IMG/VR virus record: IMGVR_UViG_3300025679_000005
DNA: 64,000 bases
Origin: a virus
Lineage: Duplodnaviria; Caudoviricetes
Reading direction: 5' to 3' (one strand)
The notes beneath the pieces were generated by a model. That model did no database searches, was not told where the DNA came from, and saw nothing but the letters and a program-made list of their open reading frames with translations. A program made the translations under genes and the position numbers. Position 1 is the first letter of the stretch. Each line of letters starts with the position of its first letter. Positions 40,463-55,449 of the stretch are shown here, piece by piece.

Positions 40463-41680
40463 TCAACCCCATCCCTAAAGGGCGGAGTTTTGCAGATCAA
40501 GTCCATGGCTCACAACCACTTCAACCCTGTCCGCGTTTGGCCTGATTACGGTGGCCCGGCTAGCAATTACGCTAGCCGCGTTGGCGTCGGCATCCGCGCT
40601 GTGCCCACATGCAAGACAAGCAAACAGATCGCGAGTCTTACGGTTGGCCTTCTCGATATGACCGCAAACGCGGCATTCCCGGGAAGTATTGCGAGGATCG
40701 ACAAAACAGACAGCAACCCCAGCACGCTTGGCTTTGTACCCGATCTTGCTTTGCAAGTCAGCGAAGGCCCAAGAGTGCAGAGAGCGTCGTTGCGACCTGG
40801 AAGCTCGGATCCGGGAGCGGATGCCATCGAGGTTTTCGATGGCTATACCGCGTCCGGTGCGTTCGGCAGCATCGACAATCTGTTTAGAAATAACATGATT
40901 CACATGCGAAGAAAATCGGGATTCTTTGCGACGACGCTTCTTGAGCAGCCGTTTAGCGCTTTTGGTGCCTTTCGTTTGGAGCTTTTTGCGCAACCGGAAT
41001 GCCCGTCCGCGGAGTGCATTAAGGTGTGTTCCGCTGAAATTCTGGCCGTCGCTAGTGGTAGCAATATTCACGATGCCAACGTCTACCCCGAGCCAGCCAA
41101 GCGTCTTATGCTCTTCGGTGTCAGGCACATCGACAGTGACAAACAGGTAGAATTTTCGGTCACGAAGGATGAGATCGGTTTCGCCACGCTCGTACTTGAG
41201 CAAGGCTCGCTGGTGGGTGCCACAAACGAACGGGATACGTTGACGGCCGTTGACTGTCCAGATATTGGTGGAATCTCCCCGCCACGACAGGATCCTAGCA
41301 TCGTACGAGATGGCCCCCAGCGGCCGGAACGTTCGACGACAGATTTTGTCGAGTTTGTAGGAGTCAGCGACCTTGGCGATGCATCGCACGACTACCTGCG
41401 AGGACATTCCTGGAAATTCAGAGCGAGCGTCGTGATAAGCGAGCTTATGGAGGGCGAATTGCCGGAAGATCTGTCCTTCCCAGGCGCGGTCGGAAATCCA
41501 GTTGCAAGCAGCATTAGCTCGACGGATCGTAGCCTCAAGCGCAGCAAATTGCTCAGCCGTCGGCTTGAGCTGAACTTGCACCACGAGCTTCATTTCACAA
41601 TGCTAGCAGTTTCTATACTTGAAGCAAGCCAAGCCGTAACAAGTCTGCGCTCCATCCCGAACGGTCGGGTTTCCGCCTTG
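40460..41680 (-). mobile_element. Non-autonomous IS200/IS605-family (IS1341-like) element carrying only tnpB; ends approximate
   Basis: Right-end palindrome CTCCGCCCTTTAGGGATGGGG on the minus strand; related imperfect palindrome at ~41650-41676 in the same orientation; intergenic insertion; no tnpA. Confidence 0.75.
40475..41593 (-). CDS. tnpB: TnpB RNA-guided endonuclease (372 aa)
   Basis: RuvC-I LGVDVG, RuvC-II IAIENL, zinc finger CRVC...CLAC, RuvC-III DADANAA; ORF runs into the right-end hairpin. Confidence 0.93.
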   Translation of the reverse strand: MKLVVQVQLKPTAEQFAALEATIRRANAACNWISDRAWEGQIFRQFALHKLAYHDARSEFPGMSSQVVVRCIAKVADSYKLDKICRRTFRPLGAISYDARILSWRGDSTNIWTVNGRQRIPFVCGTHQRALLKYERGETDLILRDRKFYLFVTVDVPDTEEHKTLGWLGVDVGIVNIATTSDGQNFSGTHLNALRGRAFRLRKKLQTKGTKSAKRLLKKRRRKESRFSSHVNHVISKQIVDAAERTGRGIAIENLDGIRSRIRASRSQRRSLHSWAFADLQSKIGYKAKRAGVAVCFVDPRNTSRECRVCGHIEKANRKTRDLFACLACGHSADADANAASVIASRATVIRPNADRVEVVVSHGLDLQNSAL

Positions 41681-51783: not shown

Positions 51784-52632
51784 TCATGCCCTGGGTAAAA
51801 GCGACCACGTTTGAGGATTTTCGAGCTGGTGTGAGATCTGAGCGATGTCGGAAAGGCCCGCTAGGTAATCCACCTTCTCGTAGTCGATAGTGCGCTGAAC
51901 CAGAGGACTCAGGGATTCTTGGAAAGGGGTCATGATCGGTACTTTGAGACCGTGGACGAAGTCGTTGAAGGCGGCGTCATGCCAGGGTGGGGACCAGGCA
52001 CTTGACCGACAGATATACACCATCTCGACATTGCCCGCGTATTCCGACACCTTGGGATCAGGCCATACACACGGCTCTGTGTACCGCCTCAGGGAAGCAT
52101 CCAGTTCAGGGAAGCCCCCGTCTCCAAAGCTCCTAGTCCAATCGGCCATCCCCTTCCACGGGGGAAACACGATCAAAGACTTGAGCTGAAGCTGCGTCAG
52201 ATGGGTCATGAGCAGCCAGTTCTCACAGGTGACGTTGCCTCGAAGGGCGTCCCGCTCGAACTGGGCCATGTTGTAGGTCAGGTCGTGGTGAGCGTCAAAG
52301 TTCACCAGCCGGGTGTCAGCTAAGGACGGGCCCTCACAATTCGAACGGGAAAACACCTTGTTCCCGTGCTGATGACTGTCCCCTACAATTACCTCACAGA
52401 GATCATCGAACCGATAGCCCAGACCTCGAAGGGTTTTCCAGAAGTCTCGTGGGTGGGGGTCGTCTAACTTGGCTGACTCTTTGAGGTCGAGCCCCTGTGC
52501 TTTAGCTAAGGCCAGACGAACTTCCCATACAGAGCCGTAGTAGGTTTCAGTTTCTGCGTGAGCCCATTTCCACTCTTCTCGTTCAATAGCGAAGTAGTCC
52601 CAATCTATTGTTAGCCAGATATTTTTTCGCAC
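51784..52632 (-). CDS. UPF0489/arginase-fold-like protein
   Basis: LTIDWDYF, DSHQH, NFDAHHDL; likely GTG start at 52632 after GGAAG (the track start at 52716 lies in spacer 1). Confidence 0.55.
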   Translation of the reverse strand: MRKNIWLTIDWDYFAIEREEWKWAHAETETYYGSVWEVRLALAKAQGLDLKESAKLDDPHPRDFWKTLRGLGYRFDDLCEVIVGDSHQHGNKVFSRSNCEGPSLADTRLVNFDAHHDLTYNMAQFERDALRGNVTCENWLLMTHLTQLQLKSLIVFPPWKGMADWTRSFGDGGFPELDASLRRYTEPCVWPDPKVSEYAGNVEMVYICRSSAWSPPWHDAAFNDFVHGLKVPIMTPFQESLSPLVQRTIDYEKVDYLAGLSDIAQISHQLENPQTWSLLPRA

Positions 52633-52652
52633 GATACTTCCTTGACGTTGTC

Positions 52653-52843
52653 GTGACCACTTGAAAGGGTTTCGTCTCCCTCTCTGACCCTTTTTGGGTC
52701 CGATTTTGATGGTCATTGGTTCTTACCTGGTGACCACTTGAAAGGGTTTCGTCTCCCTCTCTGACCTGTAAAAACGGGCGGCGTCACCAACACCCAGGTA
52801 TCGGTGGTGACCACTTGAAAGGGTTTCGTCTCCCTCTCTGACC
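52653..52843 (-). CRISPR. CRISPR mini-array: 3 identical 37-bp repeats and 2 spacers of 40 bp
   Basis: Repeats at 52653-52689, 52730-52766 and 52807-52843; minus-strand repeat GGTCAGAGAGGGAGACGAAACCCTTTCAAGTGGTCAC; spacers unrelated to each other; next to a RuvC effector. Confidence 0.93.
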
Positions 52844-53151
52844 TTACCCCTAGGCACCTCAAGCATTTCGCGACCTTGCACAATGCTTTGCGAGAGGTCG
52901 CGAAATCGACCCTTTTTGAGGGAGGGCGATTTGGCAATAAACGCCTGGCTCCATCAACGATGGAGCCTAATTTGGCTGTTGCGAGAGCCTGCTGGCTTTT
53001 TGGCGCCACCGAACCTCTCGCAACGAGGAAGACGAATTGTCAGAGAACAGAGTGAGAGAAGAAACCCTCTTAAGTGTGGTGGACTCAACCACCAAAGTTG
53101 GGAATACGTAGGTACTCTCACGAGCCCCACTCAGCTAACTTTCGTTAGCTG
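52844..53151 (-). ncRNA. Putative tracrRNA/scaffold and leader region (boundaries unknown)
   Basis: Anti-repeat at 53048-53076 (24/29 identity to the repeat); stems at 52865-52906, 52947-52967, 52978-53024, 53077-53094 and 53132-53151. Confidence 0.7.
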
Positions 53152-55084
53152 TCGTCCCTAGAGGAGCCACCGACACTGCGCCGCTATCGACACAGCCTTC
53201 CGGTTTGCCTTGCTTACGCTTGGCGCTCTTCCTATTGTGCTCAGGAGCTTTCGCTACTGAGTTTTGGGTCTGCTCTGCCCGAGCAGACCTTTCGGCCCAC
53301 GCTGTTTGGCGTATGGCCAGAAATTCTGGATTGTCAAAGTCCCGGAGATTCATAGCTGCGTTCGCATCTCGATGATTCTCTGGGAGGTGCCCCCTACGAG
53401 GCTCTCGAACGGATCCTACACCGAAGCCGCAGCTCTGGCATCGGAAATATTCGTTAGAACCCAACTTCCTGTTGAGGACCCCGCAGGCATGGCATTGCTG
53501 AGATGTGTATTGAGGCTCCTTGGCGTGGACTACCGCTCCTGCCCAGGTCGCCTTGTAGGTCAATTGCTGGCGAATTGCATAAGGTCCGATCTTGGCCCAC
53601 ATTTTGGCAAAGACCCGTCGCATGCGCTTGGATGCGTTCGAGCCAAGGTCTTGCTTCGCCATCATACCCTTGATGTCCAAGTCCTCGACATGGTAGGTGC
53701 TTGCGCCCTGATCAATCAGGCGTCGAGTGACCTGATGGCGTAGATCCCCCAACAGGTCCGTGATCTTGGAGTCAATGCGTCGGACTTGGCTCTCAACATC
53801 AAGGTAGCCGTTGGAGGGCTTTTGACGGATCGCTTTGCCTTTGGGGTCTAGGCGCACGCTGCCTTGATTGACGAGGACGATACCGTTCTTGTTCGCGGCT
53901 TCGACTGCGACTCGACCTTGTCTTCTGGAGAGTCTCCTCTGGAGGACAGCTTTTTTGCGTTCGAGCTTCTCGACCGTCTTCATAGCCTTCAGGTAGAATT
54001 CCTGAGCATAAATCTTGGCATTGGAGTCAACGACAAATGTCCGTTTGCCCAGGTCGATGCCTAAGGTCTCGCCAGTGCGAGGTTTTGGGTCCGGGGCATC
54101 GATCTCGACTGTCAGAGACAGGTACCAATGAGTCCCTCGTTTTTGGACGGCGACCTGAGTGTGGTTGACGTGATGAACCCCAATAGGGAAATACTTTGGA
54201 CGAGCCAATAGGATCCACTCGTGACCTTTTCCAAAGAACTTGCCAGCTCCTTGGATTTTGATCCGATCTCCCTGTATGGTAACTGTCGTAGACACTCGGA
54301 CAGCACCAGCCTCCGTCGTATAGGCTTCCTCTGGAATTATTGGGAAAGCCGTCACCTTCCCCAATTCCTTGAATGTTGGCTGATTCATCCGGAATTTAGG
54401 AGGGCTCTTCCCAGCCGCCTTGAACTTAGGGTACCCACTAGCTGGAACTCCTGGGGGCGGCTTTACCATGCGATCAAAAGCAAAGTCCACATCCGCGAGT
54501 GCCTCACGACTTACATAGGCAGTAGCTTGGTCCTTCAGGGGCGTTTTGCCGTACAGTGCTTGGGCATTCCTAGGGAATTTGACTATGGGGTCTTCGGCCC
54601 CAGGCTCCCATGCGTCTAGACCTAGGACTCGTGATGCCTGAGGTTGTAACTCCGAAAGATGCGATTCGAGCCATCGAATCGCATTGTTTGGGTTCACACC
54701 CTTGTACTTGTCACCGATCTTTAGGGAACCTTCGATACTGGGGGTTAGAAGGACATCCCCTAGCGGGCCGGAGAACTTCCAACCGCTAGCTTTCTGGCCC
54801 TCTTCTCGGAATTTCTCGTGCGTGTACCCAAGAGCTGTGAACAGAGCTTCGACATCGTAAATGGTTTGAGGGCGCTTGGCCTTTAGCTCTTTTGCGGACA
54901 GGTCCACCCACCCTCGGCGTAGTCCCAGTAGGTAGAGCTGCACCTTGTATGCCTTGTACTCCGCTGTCCTTACTGCGACACCGTGGTTATACGTTCGTCG
55001 AGTGACCCTGCACCAACGAGACAGTTCTTGTTCTTGCCTTGCTGTAGGGTAGATTCGACTTACGTAAGCTTTGTGGATCCTCAT
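53135..55084 (-). CDS. cas12: Compact type V CRISPR effector candidate (TnpB-derived RuvC nuclease, Cas12f/Cas14/V-U-like), 649 aa
   Basis: N-terminal YVSRIYPTARQEQEL; RuvC-I LGIDLG, RuvC-II YHVEDL, zinc finger CHAC...CQSC, RuvC-III HRDANAA; adjacent array and anti-repeat. Confidence 0.85.
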   Translation of the reverse strand: MRIHKAYVSRIYPTARQEQELSRWCRVTRRTYNHGVAVRTAEYKAYKVQLYLLGLRRGWVDLSAKELKAKRPQTIYDVEALFTALGYTHEKFREEGQKASGWKFSGPLGDVLLTPSIEGSLKIGDKYKGVNPNNAIRWLESHLSELQPQASRVLGLDAWEPGAEDPIVKFPRNAQALYGKTPLKDQATAYVSREALADVDFAFDRMVKPPPGVPASGYPKFKAAGKSPPKFRMNQPTFKELGKVTAFPIIPEEAYTTEAGAVRVSTTVTIQGDRIKIQGAGKFFGKGHEWILLARPKYFPIGVHHVNHTQVAVQKRGTHWYLSLTVEIDAPDPKPRTGETLGIDLGKRTFVVDSNAKIYAQEFYLKAMKTVEKLERKKAVLQRRLSRRQGRVAVEAANKNGIVLVNQGSVRLDPKGKAIRQKPSNGYLDVESQVRRIDSKITDLLGDLRHQVTRRLIDQGASTYHVEDLDIKGMMAKQDLGSNASKRMRRVFAKMWAKIGPYAIRQQLTYKATWAGAVVHAKEPQYTSQQCHACGVLNRKLGSNEYFRCQSCGFGVGSVREPRRGHLPENHRDANAAMNLRDFDNPEFLAIRQTAWAERSARAEQTQNSVAKAPEHNRKSAKRKQGKPEGCVDSGAVSVAPLGTTANES

Positions 55085-55449
55085 GATTTGATTGCTCGCT
55101 CCACTGCATCCAACAAGTCCGATTTGTGGGCTGGTTTGAACAAGACCTTGGCTTCTCCGATGTCTTGCAAAGCCGACATGACGGCTATAGGGGACCCTGT
55201 GTTGAATACGAAGCGCTTAGCCATCTTGGGCTTTGCTTTGATAGCAGCCTGCATGAGGGCGGGGCCGGACAGAACCGGCATCTCGCCGTCAGAGACCACA
55301 CAATCGTAGTCCTTCGCCAGGAGCCCCTTCAGGGCCTTCTCGCTGTCGATGTAGGTGTCCACATCGTAACCCGAAAGACGCAGAGTCCTGGACAGGGCCT
55401 CAGCCACTTCCGGACTGTCGTCTACGACTAGTACCTTTTTCATCGCCAT
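55081..55449 (-). CDS. Single-domain response regulator (CheY-like receiver)
   Basis: VLVVDD, phospho-acceptor SDGEMP, T (NTG), KP. Confidence 0.9.
   Translation of the reverse strand: MAMKKVLVVDDSPEVAEALSRTLRLSGYDVDTYIDSEKALKGLLAKDYDCVVSDGEMPVLSGPALMQAAIKAKPKMAKRFVFNTGSPIAVMSALQDIGEAKVLFKPAHKSDLLDAVERAIKS

Follow-up and report, generated by a model that had tools for sequence, protein, structure and literature searches.

A predicted tracrRNA at the 3' end of a phage-borne, TnpB-derived nuclease gene and its relation to a neighbouring CRISPR mini-array

The DNA analysed here is a stretch of 64,000 nucleotides (hereafter, the window) of the IMG/VR virus record IMGVR_UViG_3300025679_000005, which is assigned to the Caudoviricetes. 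On the minus strand of the window, a gene encoding a 649-aa TnpB-derived type V nuclease (53135..55084; the effector) is followed on its 3' side by a gene-free stretch of about 290 nt and then by a CRISPR mini-array (52653..52843), which is composed of three identical 37-nt repeats (52807-52843, 52730-52766 and 52653-52689) and two 40-nt spacers. The stretch between gene and array contains, again on the minus strand, a 29-nt anti-repeat (53048..53076), with hairpins on its 5' side that extend into the effector gene and a CRISPR leader on its 3' side that extends to the array. An earlier reading of this DNA, made from the sequence only (the sequence-only reading), had proposed that the anti-repeat belongs to a trans-activating CRISPR RNA (tracrRNA) or to a scaffold derived from an omegaRNA. 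Here we report that repeat and anti-repeat co-vary in seven loci, the window included, which supports this proposal, and we argue from these sequence comparisons that the anti-repeat very probably forms the 3' portion of a tracrRNA, the body of which would overlap with the last part of the effector gene.

Co-variation of repeats and anti-repeats

Read on the plus strand, positions 53048-53076 match the reverse complement of the 37-nt repeat at 24 of 29 positions without any gap. The minus-strand RNAs of anti-repeat and repeat can accordingly form 26 pairs over these 29 positions (24 Watson-Crick and two G-U pairs) with repeat positions 4-32, leaving the GUCAC that precedes the spacer unpaired. 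The match and pair counts of the sequence-only reading were reproduced in this way, and the match proved to be unique: apart from the three repeats, there was no other match of at least 20/29 on either strand of the 64-kb window. The energy calculated by RNAduplex for the repeat:anti-repeat pair is -41.2 kcal/mol, versus -28.8 +/- 2.6 kcal/mol for shuffled repeats and -27.9 kcal/mol for the opposite strand, and the region 52845-53200 folds far better than shuffled versions of it (z = -6.5 for the minus strand and -5.2 for the plus strand). No Rfam family matched at gathering scores over the window, and none at E <= 5 over positions 52600-53450.

An exhaustive HMMER search yielded a small family of proteins related to the effector (P0015-P0022; 567-683 aa, 33-48% identity), and a metagenome scan contributed one more locus (L030). 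A word-indexed protein search returned ordinary TnpBs only, and no further family members were found in IMG/VR. The loci L005, L030, L007, L008, L010 and L006 each contain, near the stop codon of the effector gene and on the same strand, an anti-repeat that is complementary to their own, different repeat. This anti-repeat is located inside the open reading frame (ORF) in L008, and 37-134 nt after the stop codon in the other loci. The duplex is ungapped in the window, L005, L030, L007, L008 and L010, where it spans 28-32 nt with 24-28 pairs, and it is gapped or bulged, with about 21 bp, in L006. In every locus the duplex ends 4-5 nt before the spacer, leaving a G(U/C)CAC tail free, and in the sense of the effector all repeats have this G(U/C)CAC at their 3' end despite their widely differing sequences. 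When repeats and anti-repeats were compared across loci, pairs from the same locus scored 16-22 and foreign pairs 3-12, except for the sister pair L005/L030; the own pair of L006 scored only 7 in this ungapped comparison, owing to its bulged duplex. A cross-locus matrix of energies agrees with these scores in that its diagonal dominates. In-register co-variation of this kind is what a functional pair of repeat and anti-repeat, not a relic copy, would predict.

The loci differ in the number and the position of their repeats. Arrays of 2 to 10 repeats are present downstream of the gene in L005, L007, L008 and L010, with the ten repeats found in L010. In L006, on the other hand, the array lies upstream of the effector gene (1-177) and the anti-repeat downstream of it (2299-2364). 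In L030 (WNGH01026830.1, 4420-4702), a scaffold, an anti-repeat and a leader are followed by a single repeat and then by unique sequence; it is a one-guide locus that resembles a stage between an omegaRNA and an array.

Two facts settle the orientation, namely the G(U/C)CAC at the end of all repeats and the location of the leader on the side of the effector: the CRISPR RNA (crRNA) would be made from the strand that encodes the effector, and would have its repeat 5' of its spacer, which is the type V order. The repeat of the window can fold an internal 7-bp stem, which competes with the repeat:anti-repeat duplex. According to the sequence-only reading this stem forms on the minus strand only; it is real in the window, but among the relatives it is neither conserved nor strand-specific. 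As for the spacers, whose protospacers would allow a comparison with the A-rich 5' PAM of Cas12n, neither had a match in the phage collection or an exact 22-mer match in IMG/VR. Spacer 1 contains a terminator-like hairpin (52780-52794, minus strand) that is followed by TTTTT on the crRNA strand; this might cut transcription of the array short behind its first unit, or might be a matter of chance.

The hairpins on either side of the anti-repeat

Five perfect stems of 12, 9, 10, 6 and 8 bp had been described around the anti-repeat, the 8-bp stem spanning the TAG stop codon of the effector (53135-53137), and all five are indeed present. The view that they make up one scaffold did not stand, since the 10-, 9- and 12-bp stems are located in a leader that is homologous to the leaders of class 1 arrays (see below). 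The predicted tracrRNA scaffold (53077..53211, minus strand) consists, from 5' to 3', of a CAAACCGG motif and a helix, P1, that encloses hairpin H1 (53165-53209); a small hairpin, H2 (53156-53164); H3, which lies over the stop codon (53132-53151; 8 bp, 53132-53139 / 53144-53151); H4, which has a GUGA loop (53108-53130); a UUCCCAAC linker between H4 and H5, which reads UUCYYCAA in the window, L005 and L030; and H5 (53077-53094; 6 bp, 53077-53082 / 53089-53094).

This order of hairpins recurs, with different stems, in L005, L030, L007, L008, L010 and L006. In all seven loci H5 ends 0 nt before the anti-repeat, each time with a different stem sequence, and the background frequency of such an abutting hairpin ranges from 0.005 to 0.15, depending on the locus. 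The window, L005 and L030 have the same elements in the same order (CAAACCGG, P1/H1, H2, H3, H4 and linker). The positions of H1, H3 and H4 are kept with compensatory changes, and the loops of H4 are all of the GNRA type (GUGA, GCGA and GUAA). A comparison of homologous loci, one of the checks put forward in the sequence-only reading, has thus brought out compensatory changes in the hairpins: in the RNAalifold analysis, which involves few sequences, 14 of 32 pairs are changed on both sides. In L007, L008, L009 and L010, which are more distantly related, CAAA(A/C) is retained with a co-varying P1 after it (AGUCG/CGACU, AGUCUGAC/GUCGGACU and ACCGC/GCGGU), and hairpins remain after P1, 5' of the anti-repeat. 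It may be added that L009 retains its scaffold-like motifs (CAAAAGUC and P1/H1) within a long C-terminal coding tail.

A conserved block, GCGTAAGC..GCAAACCGG..CGGTsGCTCC, encodes residues ~615-640 in the window. In L005 and L030, where a TAA within GCGTAAGC serves as the stop codon, it is non-coding. Because the same block is coding in one locus and non-coding in the others, the constraint appears to act on the RNA. The part of the protein that matches the scaffold DNA (residues 605-649) is a disordered C-terminal tail, with a pLDDT below 50 in the AlphaFold2 model of the effector. In the case of L006, an intrinsic terminator, composed of a long GC-rich stem with a T-rich tail, comes directly after the anti-repeat. 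Given this terminator, and an array that is separated from the anti-repeat by the gene, the RNA of L006 is expected to end there and to pair in trans. The compensating hairpins on the 5' side and this terminator directly after the anti-repeat support one of the two architectures offered by the sequence-only reading, namely that in which the scaffold has its start in the 3' end of the effector's gene and the anti-repeat as its end. Cofolding, which had been named as a further check, points in the same direction, in that the scaffold hairpins persist in the presence of a crRNA: when the RNA from 53211 to 53044 was folded together with a repeat and 20 nt of spacer, H1, H3, H4 and H5 were retained and the duplex was formed.

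Further 5', about 40 nt from P1, the sequence UGA..ACAAUAG (53232-53243, minus strand) is invariant in the window, L005 and L030, in each of which it is coding. The scaffold might extend 5' to include it, and it might pair as a pseudoknot with the UCA of the repeat tail; conservation at the protein level would look alike. Candidate pseudoknot partners for the GUCAC tail are the GUGA loops, the H5 loops and the invariant UGA at 53241-53243, all of them 3-4 nt matches that are indistinguishable from chance.

The leader (52845-53047, minus strand), located 3' of the anti-repeat, is characterized by a hairpin and by motifs at fixed distances, both of which are shared with class 1 arrays. Its conserved hairpin, GUUGCGAGAGG...CUCUCGCAAC (52978-53024; 10 bp, 52978-52987 / 53015-53024), occurs only once in the window, and is almost invariant between the window, L005 and L030 (GUUGCGAGAGGUUnGGU...CCUCUCGC). 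The distal CTCTCGCAA (52888-52896) is followed by CTCGCA-N10-yAAG-N31-33 up to the first repeat, and in six family loci a gap-free alignment is obtained for the 75 nt that precede repeat 1, all with CTCGCA, 10 nt, YAAG and 31-33 nt to the repeat. The 9-bp stem (52947-52955 / 52959-52967) and the 12-bp stem (within 52865-52906) belong to the variable part of the leader, and neither is conserved even in the closest relatives, L005 and L030.

When the hairpin was searched as a DNA pattern, one match was obtained in IMG/VR and ten in species-representative genomes; seven of the latter ten look like chance matches within coding sequence. The full hairpin shape was found in a 512-kb phage (L106), a Polyangiales metagenome-assembled genome (MAG; L107) and a Dehalococcoidia genome (L115). 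In these three loci the hairpin, TGCGAGAGGTTnGGT...CTCTCGC, is located 125-150 nt upstream of a large CRISPR array and in matching orientation, and the repeats of these arrays end in ATTGAAAC or ATTGAAGC. The distal spacing CTCG-N10-YAAs-N31 before the repeat is also present in L106 and L107. Based on Pfam, the array of L106 is flanked by cas5d/csd1/cas7/cas3 (type I-C), that of L107 by a Cas4-Cas1 fusion and a GSU0053-family protein (type I-G-like), and that of L115 by cas2 and cas3. No effector homologue was found near any of the three arrays, and no anti-repeat within 600 nt of them. Since the leader of the window is homologous to class 1 leaders that come without effector or anti-repeat, region 52845-53047 appears to be an independent module and not the body of a tracrRNA. 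The shared hairpin, GCGAGAGGUUnGGU...CCUCUCGC, has the positions 52978-53024 in the window, L106:8883-8924, L107:2256-2297 (minus strand) and L115:6023-6065 (minus strand), and 20 identical bases are common to the window and Polyangiales copies. Among 201 Polyangiales genomes searched, the exact leader hairpin was present in one, the L107 MAG itself, which does not provide a host assignment.

Possible layouts of the guide RNA

Taking these comparisons together, we consider it likely that the window contains a phage-borne type V system in which the tracrRNA begins in the 3' end of the effector gene and ends with the anti-repeat, the region downstream being a leader. This would be an adaptation-less type V system that is based on a TnpB-derived nuclease and uses two RNAs. 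The tracrRNA would be the 3' portion of the effector's minus-strand transcript, with a size of about 165-200 nt; its start would be within the last ~30-40 codons of the effector, which encode the disordered tail, or may lie further 5', near 53232-53243. It would fold into P1/H1 and H2-H5 and terminate in the 29-nt anti-repeat (53076 to 53048), which would pair with almost the whole repeat of each crRNA (repeat 5', spacer 3'). H5 would stack directly on the repeat:anti-repeat duplex, and the final five bases of the repeat, GUCAC, would stay unpaired beside the guide. The long duplex would probably be trimmed by a nuclease of the host or the phage, which may or may not be of the RNase III type suggested in the sequence-only reading, and the leader presumably drives transcription of the array and/or the integration of spacers by an adaptation module acting in trans. 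What the sequences show is the complementarity with its co-variation among loci, the conservation of scaffold and leader and the homology of the leader; the transcript ends, the processing, the protein binding and the activity in this scheme are what we infer from these features.

Several points weigh against this reading. The ends of the RNAs, their processing and even their expression are deduced from DNA; the sole sequencing run listed with the locus is a DNA run from a peat metagenome, and no RNA runs are listed. No sigma-70-like promoter for a separate tracrRNA was found, and phage promoters may differ. The comparison comprises only about seven loci, two of which (L005 and L030) are closely related to each other. 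The start of the anti-repeat in L007 and L008 was set with H5 in view, so that the 0-nt gap in these loci is partly circular, and the co-variation of the helices was read partly from hand-anchored comparisons, with H3 and H5 being misaligned in the MAFFT alignment. For L009 (P0019) and L013 (P0021), the DNA fetched contains neither an array nor an anti-repeat pair; these members may represent unsplit forms, or an array elsewhere may serve them. It should also be noted that GCGAGAG and CUCUCGC of the leader are complementary, and that an RNA role on a read-through transcript is therefore possible. Finally, the anti-repeat and the first repeat could pair in cis wherever the array is downstream, and given the single repeat of L030, the action need not be strictly in trans.

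This last point is the core of a different explanation, i.e., a natural single guide resembling an omegaRNA. One transcript would then contain scaffold, anti-repeat, leader and first repeat, pairing in cis, with the leader of about 200 nt as the loop of the guide-adjacent stem, and the later repeats would be served poorly or after cleavage. In minimum-free-energy folds of the six loci with a downstream array, the leader is indeed closed by the anti-repeat:repeat duplex every time, neither a promoter nor a terminator of its own is seen between anti-repeat and array in the window, and the single repeat of L030 means that there is no array to serve in trans. However, L006 does not fit, because its upstream array and the terminator after its anti-repeat require pairing in trans. 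Besides, arrays of up to ten repeats, as in L010, need a trans-acting partner, and a leader that class 1 arrays possess without an anti-repeat is an independent module rather than the loop of a guide RNA. We consequently consider a natural single guide unlikely, though it is the alternative that deserves most attention. The second architecture of the sequence-only reading, in which the anti-repeat is 5' and the hairpins follow it, fares worse. In such a Cas9-like layout the tracrRNA would start at the anti-repeat and have the hairpins of 52845-53047 as its body, in line with the three strong stems that follow the anti-repeat and with the very good conservation of the GCGAGAGG...CCUCUCGC part within the family. 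Yet this conserved part is the one that is shared with class 1 leaders lacking both effector and anti-repeat, the 9- and 12-bp stems are not kept even in the closest relatives, and L006 has nothing but a terminator after its anti-repeat. Moreover, judging from the structures described in PMC10097598 and PMC12216341, a 3' body would be guide-distal on a duplex of about 29 bp, far from a protein of TnpB size. A Cas9-like layout is therefore disfavoured, and seems very improbable to us.

The anti-repeat might, finally, be a relic, namely an inverted copy of the repeat, or a decoy that sequesters the first repeat or attenuates transcription of the array. Recombination can give rise to inverted degenerate repeats, and a locus known from DNA alone is compatible with such an origin. 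On the other hand, seven diverged loci are in register, with a complement that tracks the own repeat, a free tail of 4-5 nt and an abutting hairpin, and effectors of the TnpB family require a scaffold RNA (PMC10097598). A relic or decoy is thus an explanation to which we attach hardly any probability. Going beyond the favoured two-RNA system, the small family may represent a separate event of TnpB domestication in giant phages, one that has no name yet, in which an omegaRNA-derived tracrRNA was matched to an array whose leader was captured from type I-C/I-G systems. We put this idea forward tentatively, as it is rather doubtful. If it is true, the array could be filled by the class 1 adaptation machine of the host or of a co-resident element, and the anti-repeat would track the repeat of the array, with the free GUCAC tail and the H5 junction as the only fixed contacts.

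The effector, its phage and known systems

The assignment of the effector as a TnpB-derived type V nuclease is based on Pfam, NCBIfam, the family alignment, the AlphaFold2 model and PADLOC. Its Pfam domains are an N-terminal HTH_OrfB_IS605, OrfB_IS605 (RuvC) and a Cas12f1-like TNB zinc ribbon at residues 503-554, and the generic NCBIfam model for RNA-guided TnpB scores 175 bits. The RuvC residues D344/E467/D573 and the cysteines of the zinc ribbon are invariant in the family alignment. According to Foldseek, the nearest solved folds are those of the TnpBs ISFba1 and ISDra2, followed by Cas12p, Cas12f, Fanzor2, Cas12m, CasLambda and LaTranC, all of them with at most 17% identity. Against the PDB, the family profile gives 143-167 bits for TnpBs, 100 for RdCas12n, 68 for LaTranC and at most 55 for Cas12f. 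RdCas12n is hence the best CRISPR-associated PDB match of the profile; the single effector sequence did not reach it at E <= 1. The top PADLOC model for four family members is Cas12u4 (V-U4/Cas12n), which for the effector of the window scores 130 bits over near full length, with 125 and 110 bits for Cas12f models.

The IMG/VR record from which the window was taken has a size of 82.8 kb and is judged to be about 17% complete. Two further contigs, one of 464 kb from ENA and a short one from Logan, carry the effector locus with 100% identity, and the identity of the 464-kb contig over the locus indicates that the host element is a giant phage. No array variation exists among the other effector-carrying contigs, all of which are 100% identical over the locus. 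The genes neighbouring the effector encode a receiver-domain protein, RNase HII and a Dam methylase; the receiver-domain (Response_reg) gene (55081-55449, minus strand; 122 aa) overlaps the start codon of the effector by 4 nt. The genes upstream of the effector differ among the relatives, an example being NUDIX in L005. Neither the gene calls around the effector nor the four scanned proteins included a cas1, cas2, cas4 or tnpA family, and no ends of an insertion sequence (IS) were noted, although no search was directed at tnpA or at IS ends. The same phage contains a second TnpB-like ORF of ordinary size (40475-41593, minus strand; 372 aa), which matches the effector weakly, in the zinc-ribbon region. 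For the gene after the array, the longest ORF (51784-52716, minus strand) begins within spacer 2 and includes repeat 3. In the ENA annotation this gene begins 28 codons later (282 aa), so that the longer version is almost certainly artefactual. The encoded protein has a weak match to UPF0489.

What the analysis provides is a complete design of a guide RNA (scaffold, anti-repeat and repeat with free GUCAC tail), validated by comparison, for an uncharacterised family of phage-borne type V nucleases, and this design makes the system of the window directly testable as a compact editor. The family also offers a snapshot of the evolution from TnpB to CRISPR: the scaffold overlaps the gene, one relative has a single repeat, one has its array across the gene, and two have none in view. 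In addition, the leader that is common to type I-C/I-G arrays links the CRISPR classes, and suggests how phage arrays lacking adaptation genes may acquire spacers.

Systems with related features are known. The omegaRNA of TnpB has been described as a natural single-guide RNA, that of ISDra2 being the unsplit version of the layout proposed here, and the bases equivalent to the repeat tail pair with the 5' scaffold as a 3-bp pseudoknot (PMC10097598). The like features of the present family and the TnpBs of the IS200/IS605 type (ISDra2 and ISFba1) are that the latter are nearest in fold and sequence, that the scaffold RNA and the gene's 3' end overlap, and that a guide-adjacent stem is followed by a few bases, which in TnpB form the pseudoknot. 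Here, however, the guide-adjacent stem is split into anti-repeat and repeat, the guides come from a leader-bearing array and not from the DNA flanking an IS end, and the effector of the window is about 250 aa larger. The TranC clades have been described as similar intermediates between TnpB and CRISPR, with arrays of 3-20 repeats of 32-38 bp and a tracrRNA from a split right-end RNA (10.64898/2026.03.27.714800, citing Jin et al. 2025). Like the effector of the window, TranC and Cas12f are miniature TnpB-derived effectors beside short arrays, but LaTranC and Cas12f differ from the family in their low scores given above (LaTranC 68 bits, Cas12f at most 55) and in Foldseek identities of at most 17%. 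The phage-borne Cas12r is a recent TnpB derivative that needs no tracrRNA (10.64898/2026.04.20.719267). With Cas12j/CasPhi, CasLambda and Cas12r the present system shares its phage carriage, a mini-array and the lack of cas1/cas2. For these nucleases the crRNA alone suffices, whereas the family of the window has a conserved anti-repeat and scaffold, and CasLambda is only a distant fold match to the effector.

The closest known subtype is Cas12n (V-U4 / V-N, C2c9). Cas12n has a C-terminal loop that is disordered and a tracrRNA of ~170 nt with five stems that overlaps the ORF, stems 4 and 5 forming a continuous helix, and the bases just before the guide form a 3-bp pseudoknot (PMC12216341). In both systems the effector is compact and TnpB-like, its C-terminal tail is disordered and the DNA that encodes this tail also contains the scaffold, and in both the scaffold overlaps the 3' end of the ORF and the tracrRNA, as predicted here, ends in the anti-repeat. 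Also, H5 adjoining the repeat:anti-repeat duplex resembles stem 4-stem 5 of Cas12n, and a few repeat bases beside the guide are unpaired, which in Cas12n are those that form the pseudoknot. Unlike what would be expected of a Cas12n, the family profile scores true TnpBs higher, the PADLOC models of Cas12f nearly equal that of Cas12u4, and the effector of the window has an insertion of ~120 aa after the N-terminal helix. Further differences are that the duplex here covers nearly the whole 37-nt repeat, that the system is carried by a phage of ~460 kb, and that its leader is of the class 1 type. Thus, it is the almost full-length repeat:anti-repeat duplex, the giant-phage setting and the leader shared with class 1 arrays that make this system unusual.

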